Part shown: one piece after another, positions 32,778-53,295 of the stretch
Position numbering within the stretch: position 1 is the first letter of the stretch
Layout: every line of letters begins with the position of its first letter
Origin: an uncultured Candidatus Rokubacteria bacterium
GTDB taxonomy: Bacteria > Methylomirabilota > Methylomirabilia > Rokubacteriales > CSP1-6
DNA: 64,000 nucleotides
Reading direction: 5' to 3'
Assembly (NCBI GenBank): GCA_963771355.1
Contig: CAVYTA010000006.1
Location: 1,536,001-1,600,000, forward strand
The notes under the pieces: generated by a model
Told to the model about the DNA's origin: nothing
The model's input: the letters and a program-made list of their open reading frames with translations, nothing else
Database searches by the model: none
Program-made: the position numbers and the translations under genes

Positions 32778-33101
32778 TCAGCGGGACGGCGAATCGGGGG
32801 AGGGCATTCCCCCGGCGGGGGGTCCGACGAAGCGGCGTAGCACGAGATCCCCGAAGTCCGCCTCCAGCTCCGCCGCCACCGTGTCGGCCACCTCCTCGGG
32901 ACTGCCCGCGCGCTCGACGTCGGCATCCTGGCCCCATCCCTCGAGGTACGCCTCGGCCTCGGTGGCCCCCTCGCGCATCGCGAGCGCGTCGATGAGGTCC
33001 TGGAAGCGCGGCGTGAGGGCCACGCGTACCGTCCGACCGTCACCCTCGGCCTCCACCAGGGACGGGATATCCTTCCAGCGGACGATACGATACCGCGCCA
33101 T
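32778..33101 (-). CDS. Virulence_fact (CvfC-like) domain small protein
   Basis: Recognised pattern WKDIPSLV...LTPRFQDLIDALAM..G....AYLEGW. Confidence 0.75.
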   Translation of the reverse strand: MARYRIVRWKDIPSLVEAEGDGRTVRVALTPRFQDLIDALAMREGATEAEAYLEGWGQDADVERAGSPEEVADTVAAELEADFGDLVLRRFVGPPAGGMPSPDSPSR

Positions 33102-33164
33102 CCGTTATCGGCCCCCCGCGTCGCGCATCATGGCGCCCATTCTATCCAAAACGGCTCCGTTGCC

Positions 33165-33193
33165 TTGACAAAGCGCAACCCCACCCCTACGCT
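33165..33193 (+). promoter_or_regulatory. Sigma70-type promoter of the DUF169-methyltransferase gene
   Basis: TTGACA (33165-33170), 17 nt spacer, TACGCT (33188-33193); GGGAGG RBS before ATG 33214. Confidence 0.65.
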
Positions 33194-33213
33194 CGGCCTC
33201 GGGAGGATCCTCA

Positions 33214-35058
33214 ATGATCGACGTGCAGACGGCGGATCGGGAGCTCCAGACCTATATCCGCCCGCAGACCTTCCCGGTGGCGATCCGGATGCTCAAGCCC
33301 GGCGAGCCCATTCCGGACCGCGCGCGCCGTCCCGCGCGGGACTTCAAGAAGCTCAGCATGTCGTGCCAGGTCATCGACATGTCGCGGCGCTACGGCTGGA
33401 TGATCGCGCTCACGCGCGAGGACCACATCTGCTCGCTCGGCATCACCGCCATCGGCTTCGACCGGCCCCTGCCCATCTACAACGTGGGCACGCTGTGCGA
33501 GGGCATGTACACGGAGACGAAGGAAGCGGGCGCGCGCTCCGAGGCCGCCATCGACAAGTTCGCGCCCGGGGAGTACGAGACCCTGCTGGTGGCGCCGCTG
33601 GACCGCGCCACCTTCGAGCCGCATCTGGTCTGCGTCTATGCCAATCCCGCCCAGGTGATGCGGCTCACCCAGGCCGCGCTGTGGAAGCGTGGCGGCCGTC
33701 TTACCTCCTCCTTCGAGGGGCGCGCGGTCTGCGCCGACATCATCGTCACCACCATGAAGACCGGGGAGGCGCAGGTCATCCTCCCTTGCTCCGGGGACCG
33801 CATCTTCGGGCAGACGCAGGATCACGAGATGGCCTTCGCCATCCCGTGGGCGCGGATGGAGGAGATGGTGGAGGGCCTGCGGGGCACTCACAACGGCGGC
33901 ATCCGCTATCCCATCACCCAGTTCATGGAGTACGAGGCCAAGCTGCCGCCGCGCTACATGGAGGTGAACAAGCTCTGGGACGCCGAGAAGGGCAAGAGCG
34001 CGCTCACCAACCGGGACCGCGTGGTGGCCGCCTACAAGCGCTCGTTCTCCGACCGCGTGCCCGTCTATCCCATCGTGGCGTCGTTCGCGGGCACGCTGGA
34101 CGGGCTGAGCATCGAGGAGTACTGCACCAACCCCGTCAAGGCCATCAACGCGATGATGAACTACTACGAGCGCTATCAGCCCGACGTGGTGCTCGCCTAC
34201 AACGACCTCGCCAAGGAGGCGGAGGCCTTCGGCTGCGGCGTGAAGTACTCCGACTACGTGGTGCCCTCCATCGAGACCCACATCCTCGAGGACAAGGCCT
34301 CCCTGGCCCGGCTGGTGATGCCCGATCCCTACCGGACGGGGCGGCTGCCCGGTTTCCTCGAGCAGTGCGAGGCGCTCGTCAAGGCCAAGCCGCCGGCGGC
34401 CACCGGGGCGGTGGCGGTGGGCCCGTGGACCATCGCCATGCTGCTGCGGAACCCGGAGATGATGCTGCTCGACACCTTCGAGGATCCGCAGTTCATTCAC
34501 GACCTCATGCGGATCGCCACCGACTTCTCGAAGGTGTGGGGCGATGCCATCGTGAAGACCGGGATCGGACTGTCCTACTCCGAGCCCACCGCCTCCATCA
34601 GCTTGATCTCGCCCGACAACTACCGCGAGTTCATCGCGCCCTATCACAAGGAGCTGGTGGACCACTTCAAGGCCAAGAAGGTGGGAGTGACCACCCACAT
34701 CTGCGGCACCACCTATCCGATCTACGAAGACCTGATCCAGTGCGGGTTCACCACGGTGTCGTTCGACCTCGATCAGCAGGCCGATCCCGCGCTGCACGTG
34801 GACCAGCTCACGCGCTTCATGGAGGTGGTCAAGGGACGCGCGGTGGCCATCGGGAACGTGGATGCCACCAAGTTCGAGAAGACGACGCGGGAGGAGATGG
34901 AAGCCGACGTGCGGCGCTGCATCGATGCCGCCGCCCGGCACTCCGGCTTCATCCTGTCGACCTCGTGCGAGATCCCCCCGCGGTCCAATCCCGAGATCGT
35001 GAAGTGGTTCATGGACGCGGCCCACGACTACGGACGCTACGAGCGCGTGCTGGGCTGA
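33214..35058 (+). CDS. Fusion of DUF169 and a uroporphyrinogen-decarboxylase-fold MtaA/CmuA-type methylcobamide methyltransferase
   Basis: N-terminal ~250 aa: PVAIRM, SCQVI, HICSLG, YANPAQVMRL, AVCAD, LPCSGDR (DUF169-like). C-terminal part: DRVPVYP, EAEAFG, GPWT, EPTAS..LISP, THICG (HxC), GNVD, ILSTSCEI. Confidence 0.8.
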   Translation: MIDVQTADRELQTYIRPQTFPVAIRMLKPGEPIPDRARRPARDFKKLSMSCQVIDMSRRYGWMIALTREDHICSLGITAIGFDRPLPIYNVGTLCEGMYTETKEAGARSEAAIDKFAPGEYETLLVAPLDRATFEPHLVCVYANPAQVMRLTQAALWKRGGRLTSSFEGRAVCADIIVTTMKTGEAQVILPCSGDRIFGQTQDHEMAFAIPWARMEEMVEGLRGTHNGGIRYPITQFMEYEAKLPPRYMEVNKLWDAEKGKSALTNRDRVVAAYKRSFSDRVPVYPIVASFAGTLDGLSIEEYCTNPVKAINAMMNYYERYQPDVVLAYNDLAKEAEAFGCGVKYSDYVVPSIETHILEDKASLARLVMPDPYRTGRLPGFLEQCEALVKAKPPAATGAVAVGPWTIAMLLRNPEMMLLDTFEDPQFIHDLMRIATDFSKVWGDAIVKTGIGLSYSEPTASISLISPDNYREFIAPYHKELVDHFKAKKVGVTTHICGTTYPIYEDLIQCGFTTVSFDLDQQADPALHVDQLTRFMEVVKGRAVAIGNVDATKFEKTTREEMEADVRRCIDAAARHSGFILSTSCEIPPRSNPEIVKWFMDAAHDYGRYERVLG

Positions 35059-35085
35059 GCGGCGCCGGGCGGCGCCAAAGACGAA

Positions 35086-35112
35086 GGGCGCGGTGGGAAT
35101 CCCACCGCGCCC
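35086..35112 (-). terminator. Perfect GC hairpin between convergent genes; likely intrinsic terminator of the RRM gene
   Basis: GGGCGCGGTGGG-AAT-CCCACCGCGCCC (12-bp stem), followed on the minus strand by TTCGTCTTT. Confidence 0.7.
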
Positions 35113-35136
35113 GGGCTGGCTAGGCTCGAGACCGGT

Positions 35137-35529
35137 CTACCAGCGGAACGGCTTCTTGGACGGCGGAACGCCATAAGCGCCCCGATCCCCGCCGCCGCCG
35201 CCGGGACCACCGCGACCACCCCCACCGGGCCGGCCGCCGCGACCGCCCCCACCGCGCGGGCCGCCCCCGCCACCACCCGCCGGCCGCGGGTTGGAGACGT
35301 TCACGGTGAGCTTGCGCCCGTCGAGCTCCTTGCCGTTGAGCTCGGCGATCGCGCGCTGAGCCTCCTCGGCGGTGGCCATCTCGACGAACCCGAAGCCCCG
35401 GGACTGCCCCGAGAACTTATCGGTCACCACCGACGCCGACTCCACCGTCCCGCACTGCGCGAAGTACTCGCGCAGCGTCTCACTCGTGGTTGAGTAGGAC
35501 AGACCGCCCACGTAAAGTTTTGCAGCCAT
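35137..35529 (-). CDS. RRM (RNP-1) RNA-binding protein with a Gly/Arg-rich tail
   Basis: RNP2 LYVGGL, RNP1 RGFGFVEM, RGG tail. AAGGAG RBS. Confidence 0.93.
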   Translation of the reverse strand: MAAKLYVGGLSYSTTSETLREYFAQCGTVESASVVTDKFSGQSRGFGFVEMATAEEAQRAIAELNGKELDGRKLTVNVSNPRPAGGGGGGPRGGGGRGGRPGGGGRGGPGGGGGDRGAYGVPPSKKPFRW

Positions 35530-35670
35530 CTGGATCTCCTTGGGGCGACCGCTCGATTCTGACGCAGGCTCCGCAGCGCGAAGACGCTCACCGTCGCCAG
35601 GGATGGCGAGTCGAACAACCCGGGGTAGTGTACACCATGGCCCCGGGTCGCGCCACGCGCGAGATCCGTC

Positions 35671-36078
35671 TTAGCCGCACACCTCGCGCACCTGGGCCGC
35701 CGCGTCCCGGCGGGCCGCCTTCGGCTCGGCCGCCCAGTCGATCTTGTCGAGCACGTCCTCGGGCGCGAAGGGCTTCGCGAGCACGCGGAAGCCCTGGAGC
35801 TCGAACGGCACGTATTCCTCCACCCGCGTTCCCGCCGGCACCGTCACCACCACCGGCACTCCCGGCGCCACCGTCTCGAAGAGCCGGCCACGATCCGCGC
35901 CGGCCAGTCGTAGCGTGCCCGCATCCACCAGCACCGCGGACACCGGTGCCTCCATCAGGTAGCGGACACCCTCGCAGAATGTCTCCGCCATCCGGATCGC
36001 CACGCCGCGCTCCAGGCAGGTCATCGCCAGGGAGGCGCCGAGGGTCCGGTCTCGATCGATCAAGAGAATGCGATTCAT
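35671..36078 (-). CDS. Stand-alone, divergent receiver (REC) domain protein
   Basis: MNRILLIDRD, VLVD (phospho-Asp position), VVVT, LAKPF. AAAGGA RBS. Confidence 0.7.
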   Translation of the reverse strand: MNRILLIDRDRTLGASLAMTCLERGVAIRMAETFCEGVRYLMEAPVSAVLVDAGTLRLAGADRGRLFETVAPGVPVVVTVPAGTRVEEYVPFELQGFRVLAKPFAPEDVLDKIDWAAEPKAARRDAAAQVREVCG

Positions 36079-36118
36079 GTTGTTCCGTCCTTTCGGGTTT
36101 CGAACCGCGGGAAAAGAG

Positions 36119-36135
36119 AGCAAGGCTCGTGCCGA
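36119..36135 (-). promoter_or_regulatory. Sigma54 (-24/-12) promoter of the stand-alone REC gene
   Basis: Minus strand TCGGCACGAGCCTTGCT (GGCAC-N5-TTGC); IHF-like TTTCAGCTACTTG at 36164-36176. Confidence 0.75.
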
Positions 36136-36267
36136 AATGCGCAAGCTCCACTCGGACTCGGAGTTTCAGCTACTTGACGAGCCCCTCAGGATGCTCGGGG
36201 TGACAGGATCGGGCACGCTACCCGGCCTCTCCTGACACTGCCGGGGCGCAACAGGGCGGCTCGCGGC

Positions 36268-37634
<1,367 letters not shown>

Positions 37635-37638
<4 letters not shown>

Positions 37639-40600
37639 CGGCTGGGCTCTCCGGTTGGGACGGGACTGGTGAGGGGGAGCACGACGCGGAACGAGGCGCC
37701 CGCGCCCGGGCTCGAGTGGACCTCGATGCGGCCGGCGTGCTCGGTGACGATGCCCTGGGCGAGGGCCAGGCCGAGCCCGGTGCCCTGGCCCGGCGGTTTG
37801 GTGGTGAAGAAGGGATCGAAGAGTCGGGGCAGGATCGCCTCGGGAATGCCCGGCCCCGCGTCGCGGAACTCGATCTCCGCCTCCCCGCCGCGCACGCGCG
37901 TGGAGACCGTGAGGCGGCCTCGTCCCTCCATGGCCTCCAGCGCGTTGGCGGCGATGCCGAGAAAGACCTGGCGCAGCTGCCCCTCGTTGGCGATCACCGG
38001 CGGCAGGGCGGGATCGAACTCGGTGACCATCTCGCTGGAGGCGAAGCGCGGCTGGTGGCGCAGCAGCTCCAGCGTCCGCTCCACCAGCGCGTTCACGTCG
38101 GTGGCGCCCCGCCGGCTGCCGGGATCGCGGACGAAGCGGAGCAGGCTGCCGGTGAACTCCTTGCACCGGTAGGCCTCCTCTTCGATGAGCGCGAGATAGC
38201 TCGGGAAGTCGCGGAAGGCGTCCAGCCCGGCGAGACGCGGATCGCGGGCGCGCTCCCGCAGCGCTTCCGCGCAGCCGGCGATGGTGGCGAGGGGGTTGTT
38301 GATCTCGTGCGCCACGCCTGCCACCAGCCGCCCCGCGGTGGTGAGGCGCTCGGTGAGGAGCATCTGCCGCTCGAGGCGCTTCGGCAGGGTGATGTCCTCG
38401 ATCAGCAGGATGGCATGGGTGACGCGATGGTGGGGGCCCCGCAAGGGCGCCGCGGTGAGCCGGAGCATGCGCGTCTCCGCCGCCACCACCATCTCCTCCT
38501 CGGTCTGGTGCACCTCACCGTCCACGAGCACCCCCTCGAGAAAGCCGCGCACCGCGGCGGCCTTGGCGGGGGGCACGCGGTCGAGAAAGTCGGCGCCGGT
38601 GGCCGGCTCGCCGGTGAGCACGGTGGCGCCCTCGCGGTTGGCGCTCACCACCGTGAGGTCGCGATCGAGCACGTAGAGCCCCAGCGGCAGGGTCTCCAGC
38701 ACCACCTCCACGAAGCGCTTCTGCTCGTCCAGCTCGCGGGTCCGCTCGACCACCATGGCCTCCAGCCGCTCCGAGTAGGTCCGCACCGAGCTGAAGAGCC
38801 GGGCGTGCTCGAGGGCGAGCGCCGCCTGGTCCGCGAAGGCGGAGGCGAGGGCCACCTCGTGGACCTGGAAGTGATGCACGTCGGTGCGCAGGGCGGTGAG
38901 CGCGCCCAGGGTGCGGCCGCTCGCGACGAGGGGCACCGCGAGCATGGAGCGCAGCCCGCCTGCCACCGCGGGCTGGGGGAAGGCGCGCGGGTCGTTCCAG
39001 AGATCCGCGCTCTGCAGCGGCCGGCCTTCCGCGACGGCGAGACCGGTGATGCCCTGGCCTACCCGCACCCGGATCTGGCCCACCCGGGCCGGCCCCTCGT
39101 CCAGACTCGCCACCGAGGTCAGCTCGCCGGTGGCCTCGTCGAGCGTGAAGATGCTTCCCGACTGCACGCCCAGCACCTCGCGCGCCTGGTGAAGGATGAC
39201 GCGGATGGTCTCGCCGAGCTCGAGGCTCTGGCTCACCGCGCGGCCTGCCGCCAGGAGGGCCTCGGTCTCTCGCGCGCGGCGCTGGCTCTCCTCGAAGAAC
39301 CGCGCGTTCTGGATGGCGATGCCCGCCTGCTCCGCGAAGGCCTCCAGCAGGGTCTCTTCCCGGGAGGAAAAGTAGCCCGGCTCGCGCGAGTAGGCGGAAA
39401 TCACCCCGATCACGGCGGCGCCCGTCCGTAGCGGCACCGACAGCATGGCGCGAATTCCCTCTCTCTCGTCGATCACGGCGTCGGAGGTGCGGGGATCTCC
39501 ACGCATGTCCTCCACCCGGAACGGCGTGCCGGAGGCCGCCGCCCGCCCGATGATGCCGGCTCCCACCTTCGTGGACAGCGTCCGCCACTCCGCGGTGCGG
39601 GAGCCGTGCGCGGCCACGTGCTCGACGACGTTACCCTCCGCATTGAGCAGGCCGATGCCGCAGCCGGCGCTGCCGATCAGCGCGTTCACCGATCGGCTGA
39701 TGGTGGCGAGCACGGCGGGAAGGTGCAGCCGGGCGCTGATGAGCCGGCTCGTCTCGTTGAGCGCGCCCAGCGCCTCCGCGCGACGGAGCGTCTCGGCGTG
39801 GAGCCGGGCGTGCTCGATGGCGGAGGCCAGCGGGAGGGCCACCTCGGAGAGGATCTCCACGTCTTCCGCGCTGAAGGCGCGCGGGGTGGAGTGGCCCACG
39901 AAGAGGGAGCCGATGACCTCGCCCTGGGTGATGAGCGGCGCGAGCACCGCCGACTGGAAGCCGCGGCGCAGGAAGCGCTCGCGGCTCACCGGCGGCAGGC
40001 GCGGGTCGGAGAGATCGTCGATCCGGATCGGCGCGCGCTGCTCGGCCACCCACTGGGCGATGGAGCCCGCGCTGGGCAGGCGCATATCGCGCGCCTCCGT
40101 GCCGAGGGGGTCGTCGGGGCTCACCACGATGTCGACGAGGCGGAGCTCCTGCCGCTCGCGGTCCAGAAGACCCACGCCCAGCGCGGAGAAGCGGATGAGG
40201 CGCGCCACCGCCCGCGCGACCGCCTGGTAGACGCCGGCCAGGTCCAGCGCCGAGCTGGCGAGGGAGGTGACCTCGTTGACAACTTCCAAGCGGCGCGTGC
40301 GCTGGTGGAGCTGCCACACCTGGGCCATCGCGAGGCCGAACTCCTCCGGAAAGCCCAGCGGGATCCGGTCGGCGTGCAGGCCGCCGCGGCCGCCGGGACC
40401 GAGCAGGACGAAGCGACCCGTGGGCGCCGCGGGCTCGCCGAGGCTCGCGCGCAGCAGGCAGGGCCGCCCGCGGCGGCGCCAGCCCGGTGGAGGCTCGCGC
40501 AGCGTCCGGAAGGACACGCCTCGCGCGGGCTCGGCCAGCCGCTGGCCGATCCAGGTCTCCAGCGCCGAGCCCGGCCGCGGCCCCACCGTGACCTGGATGC

Positions 40601-40751
40601 GGCTGCCGCCCGCGGGCGTGAAGAGGAGGCCGCCCGCCACCGCGCCGGAATCCTCCACCAAGCGGCGGAGGGTCCGGGCGAATCCGGCCTCCGGCGATGC
40701 CGCCCGTCCCAGCGTGGCCAGGAGATCCGGGAACAGCCGCCCGATCTTCAT
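37635..40751 (-). CDS. Cytoplasmic multi-GAF - PAS histidine kinase
   Basis: Three GAF-like repeats (APLITQGEVIG, VPLRTGAAVIG, VPLVASGRTLG; AIEHARL/AIQNAR); H-box AHEINNPL; PFFTTK..GTGLGL. Confidence 0.9.
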
Positions 40752-40770
40752 CTCCCGGTCCTCACCGTCC

Positions 40771-42360
40771 TTACGACGGGGACAGCACGCGGCCGGGCAG
40801 GGCGCCGGTGTGCTCGCCGCCCTCGACGACCACGCGGCCGTTGACGAGGACGTGGCTGATTCCCGCCGCGTACCGGTGCGGCTCCTCGTAGGTCGCGCGG
40901 TCGATGATCCGCGCGGCGTCGAAGGCGACCACGTCGGCGCGCGCCCCCACCCGCAGCACCCCACGATCACCCAGCCCCAGCCGGTCGGCGGGCAGCCCGG
41001 TCATCTTCCGCACCGCCTCCGGCAGGGCGATGACCCGCTCGTCCCGCGCATAGCGGCCGAGGACCCGCGGGAAGGTCCCATAGCTCCGCGGGTGCGGCTG
41101 GCCGGCGGCCATGGGGCCTTCCACCGCCAGCGACGAGCCGTCGGAGCCGATCATCACGTGCGGGTGCACGAGGGCGGTGCGGAAGTCCGCCTCGTCCAGC
41201 TGAAACAGGATGACGCTGCCCTTGCCCGCCTCGTCCACGAGGAGGTCCATCGCCGCCTCCAGCGGGTCCTGCCCACGGGTCGCCGCGATCTCCGAGACCC
41301 GCCGGCCCTGGGCATCCGGCCGCGCGACCGCATAGGCGATCATCACGTCCTCCCAGCCGATGCCGCGGCTGAGGATGCCCGCACCGCCGTTGATCTCCGC
41401 GCGGATGCGCGCGCGCGCGGCGGGGTCGGTGAGTCGGCCCAGCATGGCCTCGATGCCGCCCTCGAGCACCCAGTCGGGCAGAAGCGTCCGGAGCGAGGTG
41501 CTGGACGCGGTATACGGGTACACGTCCGCGCGCACGTCGAGCCCCTCCGCGCGCGCGGCGTCGATGAGGACCAGCGCGTCCTTGACCCGTCCCCAGTGGG
41601 CGCGTCCCGCCGCCTTGATGTGGCTCACCTGCACCGGCAAGCCACCCGCGCGCCCGACCTGGATGGCCTCGCGGACGGCCTCCAGCAGCGTCGCGCCCTC
41701 GCCGCGGATATGGCTCGCGTAGATCCCGCGCCGGGCCCCCGCGCGCTTCGCGATACCGACGATCTCGTCGGTGGCGGCGTAGGAGCCGGGAGCGTAGATG
41801 AGCCCGGTGGCGAGCCCGGCGGCGCCGTCCGCCATGGACTCGTCCATCAGCCGCTCCATGGTGGCCTGCTCGCGCGCGGTGGGCGGCCGGCGCGCGAAGC
41901 CCATGGCGGCGAGCCGCAGCGTGCCGTGACCGATGAGCTGCACGACGTTCAGCGCCACGCCCTCGTCCTCGTAGCGGCGCAGATAGTCGCGGGTGGAGCG
42001 CCAGGAGAAGTCCATGCCCTCCGGCACGTAGAGGGCGAAGCCGCGGATCTCCTCGTGGAACTCGTCGGAGAGGGGCGCGGGAGAAAAGCCGCAGTTGCCC
42101 ACCACCTCGGTGGTCACGCCCTGGCGGATCTTGGACTCCGCCCGGCGATTTCCCCACAGCCGCCAGTCCGAGTGCGAGTGGATGTCGATGAAGCCGGGCG
42201 TCACGGTGAGCCCGGCGACGTCGAGGGTGCGGCCGGCGCCCTCGTGCGCGAGATCGCCCACTGCCTCGATGCGATCGCCCGTGATGCCCACGTCCGCGCG
42301 CCGCGGGGGCGCGCCGGTGCCGTCGATGACGGCCCCGCCGGCGATCTTGAGGTCAAACAC
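40771..42360 (-). CDS. N-acyl-D-amino-acid deacylase (D-aminoacylase)
   Basis: IDGTG, PGFIDIHSHSD, QGVTTEVVGNCG, SHIRGE, HPRSYGTFPR. GTG start. Confidence 0.9.
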   Translation of the reverse strand: MFDLKIAGGAVIDGTGAPPRRADVGITGDRIEAVGDLAHEGAGRTLDVAGLTVTPGFIDIHSHSDWRLWGNRRAESKIRQGVTTEVVGNCGFSPAPLSDEFHEEIRGFALYVPEGMDFSWRSTRDYLRRYEDEGVALNVVQLIGHGTLRLAAMGFARRPPTAREQATMERLMDESMADGAAGLATGLIYAPGSYAATDEIVGIAKRAGARRGIYASHIRGEGATLLEAVREAIQVGRAGGLPVQVSHIKAAGRAHWGRVKDALVLIDAARAEGLDVRADVYPYTASSTSLRTLLPDWVLEGGIEAMLGRLTDPAARARIRAEINGGAGILSRGIGWEDVMIAYAVARPDAQGRRVSEIAATRGQDPLEAAMDLLVDEAGKGSVILFQLDEADFRTALVHPHVMIGSDGSSLAVEGPMAAGQPHPRSYGTFPRVLGRYARDERVIALPEAVRKMTGLPADRLGLGDRGVLRVGARADVVAFDAARIIDRATYEEPHRYAAGISHVLVNGRVVVEGGEHTGALPGRVLSPS

Positions 42361-43709
42361 GGGGCGCCTCCCGGAAGTCGAGGACGGACTCGCACCATGC
42401 GGCGGCGCCGAGGAGGCGCGCTTCCGCGAAGACGCCCCCCACGAGCTGCAGCGAGAGGGGCAGGCCCTCCCGCGCGATCCCGCTCGGCAGCGCGATGGAC
42501 GGCATGCCGGCATGGCTCCACGGCGCGCAGAAGTACGGGTCACCGGTGGACTCGAGCCCGCGCGGCGCGGGCCCGGGAGCGGTGGGGGTGAGGAGCGCGT
42601 CGTAGCGCAGGGCGGTGGGCGCCATCTCGTCCCGGAACCGACGGAGGTGGCCGCGGGCGGCGAGGAAGTCCACCGCCCGGATGCCCTGCCCGACGGTCAG
42701 GGCCTCCCGGATCTTGGGCGGATACTCCTCGGCGAGCCGCGGGAAGTTCGGCGCGTGATAGGCGGCGGCCTCGGCGCGCACTACCACCTGCCCGGAATCG
42801 TGGAGGCCCGCGAAGGACGACGGCAGGGGCACATCGATGAGGGTAGCGCCGGCGGCGGCCAGGCGGCGCATCACCTCGCCCAGGTGCTCGACGTTCTCGG
42901 GCGCGGCGCGCTCGACGAGGGCGCGCAGCACGCCGATGCGCGGGGCGGGCCCGGGGCCGGCTCCGAGGCCGGCCAGGTAGTCGTCCACCGGATGCGGGAC
43001 GGACAATGGGTCGGCGCGGTCGGGCCCGGCGAGGATCTGGAGTGTGAGCGCCACGTCCTCCACCGCCCGCGCGAAGATGCCCACATGGTCATTGCTCCAG
43101 GAGAGCGGCACGACGCCGGCGGCGCTGATGCGGCCGTGGGTGGGCTTGAAGCCCACCACCCCGCAGTAGGCGGCCGGCCGCAGGACCGACCCCACCGTCT
43201 GCGAGCCGAGGGCCAGCGGCACCATGCGCGCACCCACCGCCGCGGCGGAGCCCGAGGATGAGCCGCCGGGCGTGTGCTCGGCATTCCAGGGGTTGGGGGT
43301 CGGGCTCGGGTCCATCAGGGCAAAGGTGGTGGTGGTCACCTTGCCGAGAATCACCGCGCCCGCCGCGCGCAGGCGCGCCACCGAGGCGGCATCGGTGCCG
43401 GGCTGGCGATGCGCGAAGGCGTTCGCGCCCGCGCGCGTCGGCATGCCGGCCACGTCGAAGATGTCCTTGAGGGCCACCGGCACGCCGTGCAGCGGACCGA
43501 CGAAGGCGCCCGCGGCGGCCTGGGCCGCCCGCTCGCGCGCCGTCCGCCGCGCGCCCTCGCGGTCGAGGTGCACCCAGGCCTTCACGGTGGGCTCGATCTT
43601 GTCGATGCGCTCGAGCAGCGCCTCGACCCACTCCACTGGATCCATCTGGCGCGCACGCACACGTCGAGCACCTTCAGCCGCGGTAAGGGAAGCGAAAGCG
43701 GATTGTGTA

Positions 43710-43714
<5 letters not shown>
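42353..43714 (-). CDS. Amidase signature family protein (start possibly ATT at 43714)
   Basis: GPLHGVPVALKD, GKVTT, TPGGSSSGSAAAV, GSQTVGSVLRPAAYCG. Confidence 0.88.
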
Positions 43715-45557
<1,843 letters not shown>

Positions 45558-45559
45558 CG

Positions 45560-46102
45560 CTAGGCGCCCGCCGCGCGCGCGGCGCCGGCGCCCCGCGCGC
45601 GCTCGGCGAGCAGCAGCGCCACGCGCGCCGCGACCTGATCGGCCCCGAGCGCGCTGGTGTCCACGGTGAGGTCGGCGCGGCGATAGAAGGGCTCGCGCGC
45701 GCGATAGAGCGCCTCCACGTCGGCGGGTGTGCGGCCGGCCAGCATGGGCCGCTCGCCCGCGCGCTGGGCGCGCGCGTAGAGGCTCGCAAAGTCGCCCCCC
45801 AGCCACACCACCGTGCCCAGCTCGCGGAGCGCCTCCGGCATGCCCGGGCGGCAGGGCAGCCCGCCGCCGGTGGCGATGACGTCACCCCGCTTGAGGGCGA
45901 GGAGCCGGACCGCCTCTGCCTCGGCGGCGCGGAAATATTCCTCGCCGTGGGTCGCGAAGATGGTGGGGATCGAGCAGCCCTCGCGGGCGATGATCATGTC
46001 GTCGGTCTCGACGAAGCACCGGCCGAGGCGGCGGGCGAGCAGCCGGCCCACTGAAGACTTCCCCGCCCCCATGAAGCCCACCAGAATGACGTTGTCCGCC
46101 AT
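45560..46102 (-). CDS. aroK: Shikimate kinase
   Basis: LVGFMGAGKSSVG, GEEYFR, VIATGGG, RPML, REPFY. Confidence 0.92.
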   Translation of the reverse strand: MADNVILVGFMGAGKSSVGRLLARRLGRCFVETDDMIIAREGCSIPTIFATHGEEYFRAAEAEAVRLLALKRGDVIATGGGLPCRPGMPEALRELGTVVWLGGDFASLYARAQRAGERPMLAGRTPADVEALYRAREPFYRRADLTVDTSALGADQVAARVALLLAERARGAGAARAAGA

Positions 46103-46114
46103 GTTCCAGCCATC

Positions 46115-46624
46115 CTAGCAGATTCGCGCCGAGCCCCGGCGCGCCCGCGCGACCACGTCCTCCATGCGGTAGCCGTAGAGCTGCGGGGGAGTGGCGCCGG
46201 CCTCGGCCAGCCAGCAGTCGAGCTGGCTGCGGTGGTGCACCTCGTGCTCGACCATGGCCATGAGGAAGCGCCAGAGCCGCATGGTCTGGCCCTCGAGGTC
46301 ACGGATCGACTCCTCGAGCCGCGTGTCCGGCACCGTCGCGAGCCGCGCCATCTCCCGCGCGTGGCCGTCCGAAAGCAGCGCCCGAGTGGCCGCGAGCTCG
46401 CGCTCCGGCCCGGGATCGAGGTCCTCCGTCCACCGGTCGTCGACCACGCGGGCCACGAAGAAGCGCTCCGCGCCCGCCAGGTGCCGGACGATGGCGCCGC
46501 AGCTCCACTCGTCAGGCCGCGGGCGCCAGCCCACCAGGGCCGGCGTGACGCGGTCCACCGCCACCCAGGTGCGGCGCCGCACCCCCTCGAAGTACCGGAT
46601 GAAGTCGGCGACGGAGCGGATCAT
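46115..46624 (-). CDS. DinB/YfiT-like four-helix bundle protein
   Basis: WSCGAIVRHL ... EHEVHHRSQL His triad. Confidence 0.85.
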   Translation of the reverse strand: MIRSVADFIRYFEGVRRRTWVAVDRVTPALVGWRPRPDEWSCGAIVRHLAGAERFFVARVVDDRWTEDLDPGPERELAATRALLSDGHAREMARLATVPDTRLEESIRDLEGQTMRLWRFLMAMVEHEVHHRSQLDCWLAEAGATPPQLYGYRMEDVVARARRGSARIC

Positions 46625-47655
46625 GCGGGGTCGCCCTCCGCGCGGTTCATGGGCTCGACGTAGAGCGCGCGGACGACCTCCCACACGCCGGCGAGCACGG
46701 GAATGGCGACCAGCGCGCCCACCACGCCGGCGAGCTGGGCGCCGGCGAGAATGGCGAGCAGCACGGCGACCGGGTGCAGCCCGGTGGCGCGTCCCACGAA
46801 CTGCGGAACGAGCACCTTGCCCTCGACGAGATTCGCGCCCCAGAAGAGCAGGCCCGTCCAGACCCCCAGCATCGGCGAGATATTGACCGCGCTCACGATG
46901 CCCAGCACCGCCGCCGCCGGCGAGCCGAGAAAGGGCACCACGTTCAGCGCAAAGGCGATGCCGCCGATGAGCAACCAGTACGGCACGCCCAGCAGCGCCA
47001 GCCCCACCGCGATCATCGTCCCCACGCAGAGGCTTACCACCAGCTGCCCGCGCACGTAGCCGCCCATCACGGCGAGCACGCGCGGGGCGAGCGCGAGGGC
47101 GTGCGCGCGGGGGCGGGGTGGGAGCATTCGCGCGAGGGAAAACCCGATGCGCTCGGCGTCCAGCACCAGGTAGGCGGCCAGCACCAGCACGAGGAAGAAT
47201 CCGACCACCGCGCCGAGCATACCCGCCGTCGCGCGCAGCGTATTTTCAAGGAGCACCTGGCCCACCTTCTGGAGGCCGTCGGCCCCCGCGGTCGGCGGGG
47301 GAAGGGGCAGCTCCCAGTGGGCCACCCACGCGAGCACGCGCCGGATCAGCCCGCGGGCGTTCTCGAGGTGCAAGGGCAGCTGCTGGACGAACTCCCGCGT
47401 CTGCTCGGCGAGGGCGGGAACGAGGAACCGCCCCAGCACCGCGAGCACCAGCGCAAAGCCCGCGTAGACGGCGATCACGGTCACCAGGCGCGGGATGCGC
47501 CGCTGGTCACCCCAGCGGGCGGCGGGCAGGATGGCGGCGGCGAGGATGACCGCGGTGAGCAGGACCATCCAGATCTGCCAGGTCTGGACCAGCACCCAGG
47601 CGGCGAAGACGGCGAGCGCGACGCGCCCGATGGTGCTCCAGGACAACGGGGTCAC
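46621..47655 (-). CDS. AI-2E family transporter
   Basis: GYVRGQL, NVVPFLG, NLVEGKVLVP, GLHP, GALVAIP. GTGA overlap. Confidence 0.88.
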   Translation of the reverse strand: MTPLSWSTIGRVALAVFAAWVLVQTWQIWMVLLTAVILAAAILPAARWGDQRRIPRLVTVIAVYAGFALVLAVLGRFLVPALAEQTREFVQQLPLHLENARGLIRRVLAWVAHWELPLPPPTAGADGLQKVGQVLLENTLRATAGMLGAVVGFFLVLVLAAYLVLDAERIGFSLARMLPPRPRAHALALAPRVLAVMGGYVRGQLVVSLCVGTMIAVGLALLGVPYWLLIGGIAFALNVVPFLGSPAAAVLGIVSAVNISPMLGVWTGLLFWGANLVEGKVLVPQFVGRATGLHPVAVLLAILAGAQLAGVVGALVAIPVLAGVWEVVRALYVEPMNRAEGDPA

Positions 47656-48386
47656 CGTCGCACCGTGGCGACGGCGGGCGCCCGCCGGTAGGCGCAGTCG
47701 CGCATCCAGCAGCGCCGGCACTGGGTGAAGTAGTGGTCCACCCTGGCCTCGGGCCCGATCCCCACCAGCAGGGTGATGGTCTTGCCCGGCGTCATGAAGC
47801 ACGCCTCGTTGAGGTGGACGCCGATGGGCTCGCCGTCGCAGAGCTGGAACAGCGCGCGCTGCTCCGCGGTATCCCAGCCGGCATAGCCCGGGCTGATGCG
47901 GTTGGTGACCTGCAGCTGCTCGCCGAGGCCGACCTGGCAGAGAAGATCGTTCACGTACTCGGCCAGGCTCTCCACCGCCGCCGAGCCCACGCTGTCGAGC
48001 ATGACCGCCAGGGGGAACTCTCGCACGTCGAAGAGCGCGCGCACGCGCTCCTCGATGGCGTCCCCCACCGTGCAGATTGCCGCTCCCACCGCGGTGAGCG
48101 GGCCCCACAGCCGGTCGATCTGGGGAATGTGCAGCGCCTCGCCGCCGGCCTCGATGAGGCCGGGCCCCTGCCCCGTCACCGCGCGGGCCCGGTAGACCAC
48201 TCGCGGGTACATGAGGCTCTCGCCGAGCGCGAGCGCCTCGTCGAAGATGGCGCGCACCTCGGCGGTGGGCACGTCGACGCCCTTCTTGTAGCCCTGGAAG
48301 CGCAGCACCTCGTCGGGATCGACGCGGAGGGGGAGCCCGTCGAGCACGACGGGCCCGGGGGCCAGGACAGACGGCAGACCGCTCAC
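47652..48386 (-). CDS. Stand-alone B12-dependent methionine synthase activation (AdoMet-binding) domain protein
   Basis: AICTVG, LDSVGSAAVE, RISPGYAGW, GVHLNEACFMTPGKT; C-terminal CRRCWMRDCAYRR. Confidence 0.8.
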   Translation of the reverse strand: MSGLPSVLAPGPVVLDGLPLRVDPDEVLRFQGYKKGVDVPTAEVRAIFDEALALGESLMYPRVVYRARAVTGQGPGLIEAGGEALHIPQIDRLWGPLTAVGAAICTVGDAIEERVRALFDVREFPLAVMLDSVGSAAVESLAEYVNDLLCQVGLGEQLQVTNRISPGYAGWDTAEQRALFQLCDGEPIGVHLNEACFMTPGKTITLLVGIGPEARVDHYFTQCRRCWMRDCAYRRAPAVATVRR

Positions 48387-49306
48387 CGCTTGCGGCGGGC
48401 GCGCGCCACCTCGGCGATGAGCCGGATGTGCTCGGGGCCGGATCCGCAGCAGGCCCCCACGATATTGCATCCCGCATCGAGCAGCGCCGGATAGTCCTTG
48501 GCCATGGCCTCCGGCCCGAGCTCGTAGGTGGTGACGTCACCCTTGGTGATGGGCAGCCCGGCATTTGGATAGGCGATCAGGGGAGCATCGGTGACCGCGC
48601 GCATCTCGCGGATGATGGTGATGGCGCGATCGGGCCCGCGGCCGCAGTTCATTCCCACGATGTCGGCGCCCGCGGCGAGGAGGGTCTTCGCCACCTCGGC
48701 GGGACTCTCGCCCCACATGGTGCGGTCGCGATCGTGCTGCTCCTCGTACTGGAAAAACATGGTGGCCATCACGGGGAGGTCCGTCACCGCCTTGCAGGCG
48801 GCGATGGCCGCCGTCGCCTCCTGCGGGAACATCATGGTCTCGACGGCGAAGATGTCGACGCCACCCTCGGCGAGCGCCTCCGCCTGCTCGGTGAACGTCT
48901 CGAGGTACTGCGCGTCGGTGGCGACGTTGTCGCCCACGCCGTAGTCGGCGGGGACGCAGGAGGTCGGCCCGATGGAGCCCGCCACCCAGCGGCCCGGCGG
49001 ACACACCGCGCGCGCCAGCCGCGCCCCCTTGACGTTCAGCTCGCGGGTGCGGTCGCCGATCCGGTACTCGTTGAGCTTGAGGCGGGTGCCGCCGAAGGTG
49101 TTCGTCTCGACGAAATCGGAGCCGGCGTCGAAGTAGCCCCCGTGGATGCCGCGCACCACCTCGGCGTGCGAGTCGTTCCACACCTCCGGGCAGGCCCCGT
49201 TGAGGAGGCCGGCGTCGAAGAGCGCGGTCCCGTAGCCCCCGTCGAAGACGAGGAGCTCGCCCGCCTTGACGCGCTGGACGATTTCCCAGCCGGAGGATCT
49301 GGTCAT
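48383..49306 (-). CDS. Stand-alone homocysteine S-methyltransferase (MetH Hcy-binding module)
   Basis: FDGGYGT, ETNTFG, GSIGPT, ETM, GMNC, PNAGLP, GACCG (three Zn cysteines). Confidence 0.88.
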   Translation of the reverse strand: MTRSSGWEIVQRVKAGELLVFDGGYGTALFDAGLLNGACPEVWNDSHAEVVRGIHGGYFDAGSDFVETNTFGGTRLKLNEYRIGDRTRELNVKGARLARAVCPPGRWVAGSIGPTSCVPADYGVGDNVATDAQYLETFTEQAEALAEGGVDIFAVETMMFPQEATAAIAACKAVTDLPVMATMFFQYEEQHDRDRTMWGESPAEVAKTLLAAGADIVGMNCGRGPDRAITIIREMRAVTDAPLIAYPNAGLPITKGDVTTYELGPEAMAKDYPALLDAGCNIVGACCGSGPEHIRLIAEVARARRKR

Positions 49307-49974
49307 GTGGCGGCGGGCACTCCGAGGAGCTCTTTGGCGCGGACGACGGCGAGGGTGGAGTCCCGGGCGTAGCCGTCGGCGCCGATCTCATCGGCATACG
49401 CCTGGCTCACCGGAGCGCCCCCGATCATCACCTTGACCCGCTCACGGTGGCCGGCCTTGCTCAGCGCGTCGATCGTCCGCTTCATCGCCGGCATGGTCGT
49501 GGTCATCAGCGCGGAGATCCCCACGATCTGGGCGCCGTGCTCCTCGACGGCGGCGACGAACTTCTCGGGCGCCACGTCGCGCCCGAGGTTGATCACCTTG
49601 AAGCCCGCCCCCTCCAGCATCATGGCCACCAGGTTCTTGCCGATGTCGTGGAGGTCACCCTGCGCGGTGCCGATCACGATCACGCCCAGGTCCTGCTGCT
49701 CGCGGGCGGCGGCAGTGATGAGGGGCTTGAGGAGATCGAGCCCGGCGTACATCGCCCGCGCGGACAGGAGCACCTGGGGCACGTAGTATTCGTTGCGCCG
49801 GAACTTCTCCCCCACCACGTCCATGCCGGGGATGAGCCCCCGGAAGATGAGCTCCTTGGGGTCCATCGAGCGGGCCAAGCCGTCCTGGGTCTTCCGGGCC
49901 ACCGTGTCCTTGTCCCCGAGAATCAGAGCGCGCGACATGGTGGGGTAGTCGAACTCCTCGGGCGGATCACTCAT
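49303..49974 (-). CDS. Corrinoid (B12)-binding protein (cap + Rossmann domains)
   Basis: GMDVVGEKF...YVPQVLLSARAM cap; GDLHDIGKNLV (DxHxxG); SALMTTT; IGGAP. Confidence 0.92.
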   Translation of the reverse strand: MSDPPEEFDYPTMSRALILGDKDTVARKTQDGLARSMDPKELIFRGLIPGMDVVGEKFRRNEYYVPQVLLSARAMYAGLDLLKPLITAAAREQQDLGVIVIGTAQGDLHDIGKNLVAMMLEGAGFKVINLGRDVAPEKFVAAVEEHGAQIVGISALMTTTMPAMKRTIDALSKAGHRERVKVMIGGAPVSQAYADEIGADGYARDSTLAVVRAKELLGVPAAT

Positions 49975-51368
49975 GCTCGGACCTGGGTGCCTCCGGCCTT
50001 GACGGTGGGATGGCCGGCGCGCAGCCACATGCCCATGCCGCCGGCGACGTTGTACCAGCGCGCGGCCATGCCCTCGCGGGCGAGCGCGCTGATGACCAGG
50101 CTGGAGCGGAGCCCGCCCGCGCACACCACCGCGGTGGGCCGGCCGGCGGGCAGCTCGGCGAGCCGGCGCACCGCCTCGCCCATGGGGAGATGGAAGGCGC
50201 CCTCGATATGCCCCTCGTCCCACTCGAAGGGCTCGCGAACGTCGACGATGAGGAGATCCGCCTGCTCTTCCTTCATGGTCGCCAGATCGTGCACGCTGAT
50301 CTGTGGCACCTGGTCCACCGGGTGGCCCTGGCTCTTCCAGTCACCCATGCCCCACTGCAGATGCCCCGCGATCTCGTCGAGCCCGATGCGCCCCAGTCCC
50401 TGCACGGCGCGGGTGAGATCGGTCGGGCCGCCGGCGACCAGCACGAGCGGACGGTCGGCGGGCGCGAACAGTCCCACGCGGTTTGCGAACTGCGGGCTGT
50501 CGATCCAGACATTGAGGGCGCCGGGGACATGGCCCTCCCCGAACTCGGCCGCCGTGCGGATGTCCACCACGGTGGCGCCCTTGCCCATCAGCTCGCGCAC
50601 CTGCGCCGCCGAGAGCGCCCGCGGCTCTCCGGACAGGGGCAGCGCGCGCGCCCGATTGCGGGCGATGATGCGGTCGAAGTTCGGCGGCTTGGCGGGGAGC
50701 CCGGTCATGAGGGCCCGGACGAAGGACGCCTCGTCCTCGGCGCGGAGCGCCAGATTGAAGCGCCGCTCGAAGCCGATGGTGGTGGTGGTCTTGCTCGACA
50801 TGGCGCGCCCGCAGGCCGAGCCCGCGCCGTGCGCCGGATACACCTCCACGCTGTCGGGCAGCGTGAGGAGTCGACGGGTCAGGCTCTGATAGAGCGTGGC
50901 CGCCGCCCGCTCGCCGCCGAAGTCGGGACGGCCCACGTCGCCCACGAAGAGCGTATCGCCGGTGAGGATGAACCAGGGCTCCTCGCCGCGGCTCCGGTCG
51001 GTCACGAGGAGCGAGACGCTCTCCGGGGTATGGCCCGGGGTGTGGAGGACCCGGAAGGCCACATTGCCGATGAGGATGGTCTCCTCGTCCTCGATCGGCG
51101 TGGTGGGGAAAGCCGCGTCGGCGGCCGGGTGCATGAGGATGCGGGCACCGGTCTGGTCCGCCAGGGCCTGATTGCCCGAGATGTGGTCGGCGTGGAGATG
51201 GGTGTCGAAGACGTGGGTCACGGTGAGGCCCTTGCGCCGGGCCAGCGCCATGTACTCGTCCACGCGATCCCGCGCCGGATCGACCACGGCCGCCTCGCCC
51301 GCCTGGCCACAGCCGATCAGATATGAGAGGCAGCCGGCCTCCTCGTTGAGAATCTGCTGGAAAATCAT
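49971..51368 (-). CDS. MBL-fold persulfide dioxygenase-like protein fused to two rhodanese domains
   Basis: DTHLHADHISG, TPGHTPE, TGDTLFVGDVGRPD, PAHGAGSACG; rhodanese GHVPGA and DVREPFEW..GHIEGA; active-site CAGGLRS. Confidence 0.88.
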   Translation of the reverse strand: MIFQQILNEEAGCLSYLIGCGQAGEAAVVDPARDRVDEYMALARRKGLTVTHVFDTHLHADHISGNQALADQTGARILMHPAADAAFPTTPIEDEETILIGNVAFRVLHTPGHTPESVSLLVTDRSRGEEPWFILTGDTLFVGDVGRPDFGGERAAATLYQSLTRRLLTLPDSVEVYPAHGAGSACGRAMSSKTTTTIGFERRFNLALRAEDEASFVRALMTGLPAKPPNFDRIIARNRARALPLSGEPRALSAAQVRELMGKGATVVDIRTAAEFGEGHVPGALNVWIDSPQFANRVGLFAPADRPLVLVAGGPTDLTRAVQGLGRIGLDEIAGHLQWGMGDWKSQGHPVDQVPQISVHDLATMKEEQADLLIVDVREPFEWDEGHIEGAFHLPMGEAVRRLAELPAGRPTAVVCAGGLRSSLVISALAREGMAARWYNVAGGMGMWLRAGHPTVKAGGTQVRA

Positions 51369-51507
51369 CGGTCGAATTGTCCCACAGGGCTCCGGTAGGG
51401 CGCAAGGCCGGACGCTCAATCTCCGTAGGAACTTGACCGGGCCTTGCCTGTTACACTAGAGTTTGCGAAATCCCACCGGCGGGTGAGGGGAAGGACGGGC
51501 AGGTCGA

Positions 51508-52272
51508 ATGCGGCTCAAGGTGCTCGGGGCCTACGGCAGTGACGGGCAGGGCCAGCGACCGTCGGCCTTCCTCGTCGACGACCACGTCTTGGTGGACGCG
51601 GGCACCGTCGGTGGCGCTCTCTCCGTCGCCGAGCAAACCGCCATCACCCACGCGGTGCTGAGCCACGCCCACCTCGACCACACCGTGGGCCTCGCCTTCC
51701 TCGCCGACACCCTGGCCATGGTCGCTCCGGAGCGCTCGGTCACCGCGTGCAGCATCGCCCCCGTCATCGAGACGCTCCGCACCCACGTCTTCAACGACTC
51801 GCTCTGGCCCGACTTCCTGGCCATCCCCAACCGCAACGCGCCGGTGCTGAAGCTCCGCGAGCTGCCGGAGGAAGGCGAGGCGCGCGTGGGAGAGCTCTGG
51901 GTGACGCCGGTCCTGGTGGATCACACCATTCCCACCACGGGCTTCATCATCCACGACGGCGAGACTGGCTTCGTCTACTCGGGGGATACGGGGCCCACCA
52001 CGCGGCTGTGGCAGGTGGCCCGGGAGATGCGCGGGCTCAAGGCGCTCGTGGTGGAGACGGCCTTCCCCAATCGGCTGGACGCCCTCGCGCGCGCCTCGGG
52101 GCATCTCACCCCGGCGAAGCTACGCGAGGAGATGAAGAAGATGCCCGCCGATCTTCCCGTGTGGATCTTCCACATCAAGCCGCAGCTGTATCAGGAAACC
52201 GCAGAAGAGCTGGCCCAGATCGACCCCGCCCGCCTTCACATCCTCGAGCAGGGCAAGACCTACACTCTCTAG
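51508..52272 (+). CDS. Class II cyclic nucleotide phosphodiesterase (MBL fold)
   Basis: VLGAYG, LVDAGT, SHAHLDH, HVFNDSLWPDF, SGDTGPT, ETAFPN, GHLTP, HIKP. Confidence 0.82.
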   Translation: MRLKVLGAYGSDGQGQRPSAFLVDDHVLVDAGTVGGALSVAEQTAITHAVLSHAHLDHTVGLAFLADTLAMVAPERSVTACSIAPVIETLRTHVFNDSLWPDFLAIPNRNAPVLKLRELPEEGEARVGELWVTPVLVDHTIPTTGFIIHDGETGFVYSGDTGPTTRLWQVAREMRGLKALVVETAFPNRLDALARASGHLTPAKLREEMKKMPADLPVWIFHIKPQLYQETAEELAQIDPARLHILEQGKTYTL

Positions 52273-52299
52273 TCCTTCGAGGCCCCCCGGCACGCGCGG

Positions 52300-53295
52300 T
52301 CAGGGGGCGTCGATCAGTCGGCTCAAGGACTCCCGGAATGGAAAGAGGCTAAATATGCCTCCCGTATGGATGAAACAGATCCTCTGCCCGAGCGCCTTGG
52401 GATCCTTTTCGAGCGTGGTGATGAGACCGGTGAAGGCCTTCGCGGTGTACACCGGATCGAGGACCAGGCCCTCTTCGCGAGCCAGGCGCACGATGGTCGC
52501 CAACTCGGCGTCGCCTACCGACGCCCGCCCCACGCCCTGATAGCCGTCGATCAGATGAAAGCTCTTCGGCACCTCGATGGCGAAGCCGAAACGCTGGATC
52601 GCCGCGACCATGGTCCGCCCGATATGGTCGCGCACCTTGGCCGCCGGCCAGGCAATGGGAATGCCGACGATCTCACCCGGAAGACCGGCCAGCTGCTTGC
52701 CCATGAGCATGCCGCCCTGGCTGCCGCCGCTGTACACGGAGATCACCACCGAATCGAAGCGGGGCGCCCCGTGATTGATCTGGTCGGCCAGCTCCACCGC
52801 ACACTCGAGATAGCCCAGCGCCCCCACCTCGTTGGCCCCGCTTTCCGGAATCACATAGGGCCGGTGCCCCCGGGCCACCACGTCGGCGGCGAGCTCCGCC
52901 ATCACCTCGTCCACGCGCTCCCACTGCGGGTCGGTGAGATAGCGCACCTCCGCGCCCAGCAGCCGGTCGAGCAGCAAGTTGCCGTCATAGGCCTCCGGGC
53001 GAGTCCCCTTGACGGCGAGAATGGCGTTCATGCCCAGCCGGGCCGCCACCGCGGACACGGCACGGCAGCAGTTGGACTGCAGCGTGCCGCACGTGATGAG
53101 GGTGTCCGCGCCCTGGGCGAGGGCCTCGCCCACGAGGAACTCGAGCTTGCGTACCTTGTTGCCGGACTCCAGCAGCCCGGTCAGGTCGTCCCGCTTGACA
53201 TAGAGCTCGACGCCGAGCCGACGCGAGAGCCGATCGAGCTTGAGGATGGGAGTGGGCGACAGCGCGAGGGGGATGCGGGGAGGCCCGGCAGGCAT
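52300..53295 (-). CDS. D-cysteine desulfhydrase / ACC deaminase family PLP enzyme
   Basis: KRDDLTG..SGNKVRKLEF, QSNCCR, GNLLLD, LDPVYTAKA, FIHTGG. Confidence 0.88.
   Translation of the reverse strand: MPAGPPRIPLALSPTPILKLDRLSRRLGVELYVKRDDLTGLLESGNKVRKLEFLVGEALAQGADTLITCGTLQSNCCRAVSAVAARLGMNAILAVKGTRPEAYDGNLLLDRLLGAEVRYLTDPQWERVDEVMAELAADVVARGHRPYVIPESGANEVGALGYLECAVELADQINHGAPRFDSVVISVYSGGSQGGMLMGKQLAGLPGEIVGIPIAWPAAKVRDHIGRTMVAAIQRFGFAIEVPKSFHLIDGYQGVGRASVGDAELATIVRLAREEGLVLDPVYTAKAFTGLITTLEKDPKALGQRICFIHTGGIFSLFPFRESLSRLIDAP

Follow-up and report, generated by a model that had tools for sequence, protein, structure and literature searches.

A candidate folate-independent relay from S- or Se-methyl compounds to methionine, centred on a DUF169-MtaA fusion in Rokubacteria

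Small corrinoid proteins carry methyl groups in several described systems that resemble the one reported here. In Methanosarcina, MtaA, MtsA and MtpA are UroD-fold zinc methyltransferases with a His-Cys-Cys site and a cognate corrinoid protein, and MtpA is an MT2-like protein that acts as a thioether-specific donor module. The type 1 mlp clusters, as described by Kountz & Balskus (PMC10418091), combine MtaA-like His-Cys-Cys methyltransferases with a corrinoid protein and Ram/RACo, with no folate methylase nearby; in that account they carry two to three Mlps per operon, occur in obligate anaerobes and do not have a homocysteine methyltransferase (Hcy-MT) as a defining part. The same source gives His-Cys-Cys as the mark of S/Se-methyltransferases within the superfamily, and proposes that mlp clusters recycle methyl-Se and methyl-S into methionine. 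According to their descriptions, Roseobacter MtgB-MtgC-MtgD-MtgE (PMC12478193) and the split MetH of Phaeobacter (PMC5764234) place a stand-alone corrinoid hub between a substrate methyltransferase and Hcy-MT, while MesA/B/C, the core methionine synthases of PMC7857596, are presented there as a folate-independent shortcut from methyl-corrinoid to homocysteine. The locus examined here lies in a 64,000-nucleotide stretch, hereafter the window (C6:1536001-1600000; contig CAVYTA010000006.1 of assembly GCA_963771355.1), of a Rokubacteriales genome (Methylomirabilota) that is 99.8% complete. It encodes a fusion of DUF169 to an MtaA-like barrel and, as a trio of separate genes, a corrinoid protein, an Hcy-MT and a MetH reactivation-domain-like protein (Table 1). 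We judge it probable, if only just, that these proteins form a folate-independent relay, in which the methyl group of an S- or Se-methyl compound passes through the fusion, the corrinoid protein and Hcy-MT to methionine.

The relay works like the mlp clusters and like MtgB-C-E, yet it is a member of neither. Where mlp clusters comprise two or more Mlps together with a corrinoid protein and Ram, all co-directional with gaps within 2 kb, there is here one Mlp, fused to DUF169 and encoded on the opposite strand, with RACo ~370 kb from the window genes, and a dedicated MetH-type Hcy-MT and a reactivation gene stand beside the corrinoid gene; the His-Cys-Cys zinc site and the lack of a folate methylase within 20 kb are shared. 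The split MetH parts are present as far as the stand-alone Hcy-MT, the corrinoid protein and reactivation (PF02965 plus RACo, which is likened to the RamA-type activator of the Roseobacter and Phaeobacter systems) are concerned, but there is no stand-alone pterin methyltransferase. As described in PMC12478193 and PMC5764234, those systems need the pterin module MtgD and MttB-family donors, both of which are absent here (PF06253 has 0 matches in the genome), and this genome keeps a full MetH. MesA/B/C differ in being MetE-derived and in drawing on MtrA or CoFeSP (PMC7857596), whereas the relay is of the MetH type with its own corrinoid protein. In comparison with MtaA, MtsA and MtpA of Methanosarcina, the fusion has 24% identity, carries an N-terminal DUF169 and would have homocysteine as the final acceptor rather than coenzyme M. 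A literature search that did not extend to the 367 clusters in the supplement of PMC10418091 found no description of such a system in Rokubacteria.

In the proposed mechanism the fusion would move a methyl group from CH3-S(Se)-R onto the corrinoid protein, with zinc probably activating the soft S/Se ligand. Hcy-MT would then pass the methyl group from the corrinoid protein to homocysteine to give methionine, which is the likely net direction, and the PF02965 protein and the distant RACo may reactivate the cofactor at the expense of S-adenosylmethionine (SAM) and ATP. The four-cysteine DUF169 part may handle the substrate or have an Fe-S or metal role, and the corrinoid protein may also receive methyl groups from other UroD-like proteins.

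The pairing of fusion and trio was followed across one fixed set of 121 genomes of the phylum, each at least 85% complete, in families labelled f1 to f10 (f1, n = 78; its sister family f2, n = 8, the two making up Rokubacteriales; f4, n = 10; f5, n = 11; f7, n = 2). Among the matches listed, which leave out 12 weaker matches to the fusion query, the corrinoid orthologue was present in 92 genomes and the fusion in 88; 85 had both, seven the corrinoid protein only and three the fusion only. The fusion query matched 76/78 genomes of f1 and 8/8 of f2, as did the corrinoid query, and the fusion also occurs in f6, f7 and f8. Neither is present in f4 (0/10), and in f5 the corrinoid protein is absent (0/11) and only a stand-alone DUF169 was seen, in four genomes. 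RACo follows the same family pattern (92/121 genomes; none in f4 or f5). Co-occurrence and synteny of the fusion with the trio, a check which the preliminary description of this locus had called for, therefore favour the pairing, with 85 genomes holding both and linkage kept in f7.

In the window the distance from the end of the fusion to the reactivation gene is 12.6 kb; the corrinoid gene, encoded on the other strand, lies 14 kb away from the fusion. Among the matches listed, the two are 5.7-53 kb apart in the 49 genomes that have both on one contig. More telling than general synteny are the two genomes of f7, a distant family, in which they lie 5.7 and 7.3 kb apart amid different neighbours. 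The fusion is also 2 kb from Hcy-MT in an f8 genome (G105) and 1.6 kb from a reactivation-HcyMT pair on one metagenome contig. In G092 the identity to the window copies is 85% for the fusion and 80% for the corrinoid protein, against 81% for FtsH and 52% for the amidase.

The AlphaFold model of the fusion (132-row alignment, pLDDT 92.5) shows a UroD/MtaA TIM-barrel fold, and the best structural match of the barrel is M. mazei MtaA (4AY7; VIA-align Z 40.7, root-mean-square deviation 2.1 Å over 329 residues), which is also top in Foldseek; the identity given above is that of the structural alignment with this protein. For comparison, a type 1 mlp enzyme would be expected to fall in the Mlp1/2/3 clades and to share over 25% identity with a characterised SCMT. 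The fusion falls below the NCBIfam cut-offs (TIGR01463, 127.5 versus 235.4 bits; MtaA, 97.9 versus 400). His495, Cys497 and Cys585 are kept in 111/111 full-length fusions, as are Cys51, Cys73, Cys173, Cys192 and His226 of DUF169. Named fusion copies are from Rokubacteria or NC10/Methylomirabilota, plus one other label. Three contigs of another lineage (L174-L176; GC 50-54%) encode DUF169 and the barrel separately, within an operon whose first gene specifies a 264-aa pterin methyltransferase and which also includes a corrinoid protein; in a tree that contained no Mlp reference sequences, these barrels cluster with those of the fusion. Because this operon holds both modules together with a corrinoid protein, both parts of the fusion are tied to corrinoid methyl transfer. 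Stand-alone MtaA-like relatives occur at 35-44% identity. Atlas matches were DUF169 clusters only, and in the plasmid search the distant matches were, in Thiodictyon, an operon of corrinoid, UroD and ASKHA genes, as well as a DUF169 adjoining an acyl-CoA ligase.

Many Rokubacteria have a second, stand-alone MtaA-like barrel, 61-68% identical and nested in the fusion clade, which lacks DUF169 and lies beside an F420-type luciferase-like monooxygenase (LLM) oxidoreductase, a hint that DUF169 and the LLM enzyme have comparable roles in preparing the substrate. In G044 two extra copies of the last ~74 codons of the fusion lie downstream of it (L114:12062-12283 and 18646-18867). In the genome of the window a second, stand-alone DUF169 (G000:C6:1701679-1702458; 27% identity) shares its operon with genes for a branched-chain ABC transporter and an amidohydrolase and with a molybdo-hydroxylase-like gene.

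The corrinoid protein of the window, which retains the DxHxxG motif, is the sole stand-alone methyltransferase-type corrinoid protein found in the genome. The best PDB match of Hcy-MT is T. maritima MetH (1Q7M), with the three cysteines matching, and the reactivation gene adjoins the corrinoid/Hcy-MT pair in most relatives. Corrinoid protein, Hcy-MT and reactivation protein form a conserved trio without a folate module. The window has no pterin-binding module, as the preliminary description had held. In Pterin_bind, MtrH and AcsE searches the genome and most relatives have no folate donor for the trio. The profile search of the genome gave two Pterin_bind matches only, both elsewhere on the contig, a 1160-codon full-length MetH and FolP beside ftsH, and hence no stand-alone pterin methyltransferase; it has one MetH and one RACo. 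MtrH was absent from this genome and from all 121, so that, with MttB also unmatched in the genome, an MttB- or MtrH-type partner was rejected. An AcsE-like protein is present in 5/121 genomes, and the few stand-alone pterin methyltransferases that were fetched belong to clusters apart, most of which have a corrinoid or Hcy-MT gene themselves. There is an in-phylum precedent for a donor-corrinoid-HcyMT arrangement in G092, where a second cluster, MttB-corrinoid-HcyMT (L280; G092:C8:3.707 Mb), has no pterin gene in the 15 kb fetched. Another cluster in Methylomirabilota is GcvT-MtmB-corrinoid-reactivation-RACo (L277; G052:C39).

These data bear on whether the trio is an ordinary split MetH completed elsewhere by a methyl-tetrahydrofolate (methyl-THF) module, either stand-alone or MetH acting in trans. 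The trio does resemble the Phaeobacter split-MetH parts as described in PMC5764234, and a full-length MetH is present here, with the MetH pterin query matching 81/121 genomes and 64/78 in f1; however, it matches 0/8 in f2 and 0/2 in f7, which keep the trio genes and the fusion. Furthermore, of 23 genomes without a MetH pterin match, 22 have a single strong PF00809 match, which was FolP in 8/8 fetched (beside ftsH in seven), and 18 carry a short gene for the MetE N-domain, accompanied in most cases by another MetE-like match ~1 kb away, an arrangement described as split MetE in PMC7857596. In G092 (C8:1392917-1394706) and 17 other MetH-less genomes, short MetE N-half- and C-half-like genes are adjacent; split MetE is known mainly from archaea. 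A separate full-length MetH and a RACo are present, whereas MtrH, MttB and a stand-alone pterin methyltransferase are all lacking; the trio therefore does not amount to an ordinary split MetH, a reading which we consider largely refuted and scarcely credible: neither a pterin partner that completes a split MetH nor a lack of co-occurrence with the fusion was found. MetH or split MetE takes care of the methyl-folate route, and the trio comes on top as a further synthase without a folate module, so that the relay would be a side entry that scavenges methyl groups.

Modelling the MtaA domain with the corrinoid protein, as had been suggested, supports binding: the barrel-corrinoid complex reached 0.72, whereas the highest of three controls gave 0.00, and it passes a mark reached by 116/157 solved pairs and 2/215 mismatched pairs, with contact agreement of at least 54% and partner pLDDT of at least 78. 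The fusion is predicted to dock the corrinoid protein through its cap helix (residues 59-73), which in the model lies on fusion residues ~415-422 and 462-469. With its co-occurrence, the f7 linkage, the His-Cys-Cys site and this complex, the fusion stands as the best candidate partner of the trio; that it is the missing donor module, as previously proposed, is retained as a prediction.

Several observations weigh against the relay. Cap domains dock on several methyltransferase barrels, and as a generic cap helix forms the predicted interface, the complex may reflect family likeness and not specificity; none of the three controls was another UroD paralogue. The joint absences in f4 and f5 amount to few independent losses, so no statistic was drawn from them. 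Most of the fusion-corrinoid linkage is not independent either, because gene order in Rokubacteriales is generally conserved (in a neighbourhood sample of 80 fusion loci, an RRM gene lies beside the fusion in 70 and an amidase in 49), and in G011, G050 and G052 fusion and corrinoid gene are on separate contigs. The genome also has four further UroD-like proteins besides HemE, which could load the single corrinoid protein as well, and a UroD-like His-His-Cys protein is in an operon with RACo in 6/6 f1 loci and 0/5 others fetched. Methyl transfer from thioether to cob(I)alamin, finally, is given as uphill, by about +20 kJ/mol for methylmercaptopropionate (MMPA), in 10.1101/548461, so that it would need the pull of the homocysteine step, and the reverse direction is a conceivable alternative.

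The additional UroD-like proteins raise an alternative in which the corrinoid hub is fed mainly by other donors, such as the RACo-linked His-His-Cys protein or paralogues linked to ABC transporters, one of which has His-Cys-Cys and comes after an ABC transporter, acting on O-, N- or halide-methyl substrates, with the fusion being one input or acting elsewhere. Precedents are Roseobacter MtgC, which serves several methyltransferases (PMC12478193, in its account of that system), and the O-demethylases and halide methyltransferases that PMC13222342 places in the UroD family. We nevertheless think this distinctly unlikely: the RACo-linked protein is found in 67/78 genomes of f1, 2/8 of f2 and none of f3-f10, while the fusion persists in f2, f6, f7 and f8, and G014 and G046 have just one other UroD match. 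As several UroD-like proteins coexist with one corrinoid protein, a shared hub like MtgC is plausible, and it is plausible too that the fusion is its most constant partner. The only RACo of the genome (C6:1.196 Mb) lies in a RACo-MaoC-UroD-like (His-His-Cys) operon, conserved in f1 (L266; G000:C6:1195715-1199479), whose UroD-like protein is a second corrinoid methyltransferase candidate.

The thermodynamics bring in the opposite direction of flow, in which the fusion, as an acceptor enzyme of the MtaA type, would pass a methyl group to a thiol, sulfide or selenide, for detoxification or cofactor synthesis, the methyl group coming from methionine through a reversed Hcy-MT or from SAM through the reactivation domain. 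MtaA, the closest structure to the fusion, is itself an acceptor enzyme; the pterin partner in L174-L176 is a methyl-THF methyltransferase, and for such an enzyme the downhill flow is towards a thiol; and the sole assay in the account of PMC10418091, on ClMlp2, was done in this direction, with selenide methylated faster than sulfide. On the other hand, methionine or SAM would be spent on a thiol-to-thiol transfer that is itself near-neutral. MetH-type Hcy domains normally make methionine. In addition, G014 (96% complete) keeps the trio while neither the MetH pterin query nor the MetE N-domain query has a match there, which fits a biosynthetic role, although YitJ-like Hcy-MT matches in G014 offer an alternative source of methionine there. 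On this balance we regard the opposite direction as unlikely, and the relay towards methionine is kept as the preferred account.

Methanethiol and dimethyl sulfide (DMS) are among several candidate donors for the relay. An SBP56/methanethiol-oxidase-like gene is present in the genome and does not fix the donor; it is followed by a gene that is SCO1-like by eye (G000:C6:2369453-2371797). No MetY above cut-off was found in the genome. The selenophosphate synthetase gene selD is present in 30/30 genomes, including three from families without the relay, so it allows a selenium donor and does not favour one. The SelD locus here is G000:C4:223856-226309; in the 30-genome set most copies have an in-frame TGA, likely selenocysteine, and genus g1 has only a long fused selD form without it.

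A full version of the scheme in the preliminary description has methanethiol or DMS demethylated into methionine and the dioxygenase-rhodanese, together with the desulfhydrase, dedicated to removing the released sulfide. Every gene that the description named is present with the domain it gave (Pfam and NCBIfam profile searches) and with the overlaps it listed: the dioxygenase starts with ATG at 51368, followed by ATGA at 49971-74, ATGA at 49303-06 and GTGA at 48383-86. The dioxygenase has an HxHxDH motif (THLHADH) and a rhodanese C-terminal catalytic Cys (VVCAGGLRS), resembles the MBL-rhodanese fusions 3TP9 (E 4e-75) and 3R2U (E 5e-64), from which its activity is predicted, and, in 23 genomes spread over 10 genera, adjoins the corrinoid gene; the methanethiol-oxidase-like gene and the lack of a MetY above cut-off would also fit. 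However, overlaps of the same type run on into an AI-2E transporter (GTGA 47652-55) and DinB (ATGA 46621-24), beyond which the same strand carries shikimate kinase, YitJ, an amidase and a two-component system. As the chain continues into unrelated genes, the overlaps of the trio alone prove neither shared function nor a pathway, and they were set aside as proof of coupling. A dioxygenase orthologue is present in 70/121 genomes, with none found in f3-f10 even though f6, f7 and f8 carry the relay; it adjoins the corrinoid gene in 23/92 corrinoid-bearing genomes, all in f1, and among the 68 genomes that have both genes, the two are not adjacent in 45. In a sample of 40 corrinoid-centred regions picked across genera (of these, five are built around a paralogous corrinoid gene and a few stop a short way upstream), the dioxygenase adjoins the corrinoid gene in 4 regions and the desulfhydrase does so in 3, and the latter, which is 932 bp from the dioxygenase start with a divergent phosphodiesterase gene between, was rejected as part of the system. 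Sulfide detoxification as a core feature is therefore not supported, and the full scheme is very improbable: the dioxygenase is a lineage-limited add-on, and the relay mostly exists without it. A local role is possible, given its persistence in 10 genera.

Table 1. Genes and modules in and around the DUF169-MtaA locus (window positions unless stated otherwise)
Feature	Position	Strand	Basis and remarks
DUF169 + URO-D fusion	33214..35058	+	Pfam; predicted donor-side module
DUF169 part of fusion	residues 11-221		Cys51/73/173/192, His226
MtaA-like UroD-fold methyltransferase part of fusion	residues 265-606		His495-Cys497-Cys585
Stand-alone corrinoid protein (cap + B12-binding)	49303..49974	-	Pfam/NCBIfam; D107-x-H109-x-x-G112
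Stand-alone homocysteine methyltransferase, MetH N-terminal type (S-methyl_trans)	48383..49306	-	Cys221, Cys286, Cys287
Stand-alone MetH reactivation-domain-like protein (Met_synt_B12, PF02965)	47652..48386	-	Pfam/NCBIfam
Persulfide dioxygenase-rhodanese fusion (metallo-beta-lactamase (MBL) + rhodanese)	49971..51368	-	3TP9/3R2U-like; accessory, attached in some genera only
Small PF13769 protein	32778..33101	-	Pfam; runs divergently to the fusion; putative accessory in corrinoid systems
YitJ-type Hcy-MT/methylenetetrahydrofolate reductase	43710..45557	-	NF006396 above cut-off; same strand as trio, syntenic in Rokubacteriales; putative role in relay
D-cysteine desulfhydrase/1-aminocyclopropane-1-carboxylate deaminase-family pyridoxal phosphate enzyme (PALP)	52300..53295	-	No NCBIfam family above cut-off; neighbour only
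Class-II phosphodiesterase gene	51508-52272	+	Divergent, between desulfhydrase and dioxygenase
Stand-alone barrel + LLM oxidoreductase loci	L098-L107, L190-L247, e.g. L099:8472-10539

The PF13769 gene adjoins the fusion in 25/80 loci, and in G054 it also sits within a separate corrinoid cluster. In the window it heads a divergent unit (29537-33101, minus strand) with a small membrane protein, a large membrane sensor kinase and a sigma-54 regulator; the N-terminus of the kinase is sodium:solute symporter-like by eye and is not confirmed by Pfam. The window gave no Rfam match and no promoter signal. Metatranscriptome contigs of four runs cover its region as short pieces, from which neither a ranking of genes nor co-transcription can be read.

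The relay bears on a proposal, still open, by which methyl-S or methyl-Se would be recycled into methionine without folate by MtaA-like enzymes of organisms other than methanogens. That nearly all Rokubacteria take methyl groups from volatile methyl-S and methyl-Se compounds (methanethiol, DMS, methylselenol) straight into methionine by this route, which would make this soil lineage an unrecognised assimilatory sink, is a more far-reaching claim, and we hold it to be doubtful; if true, DUF169 would gain its first function and an abundant soil lineage would assimilate these gases. The near-universality of the system in Rokubacteriales and its FtsH-like conservation point to a core function in this uncultured soil lineage.

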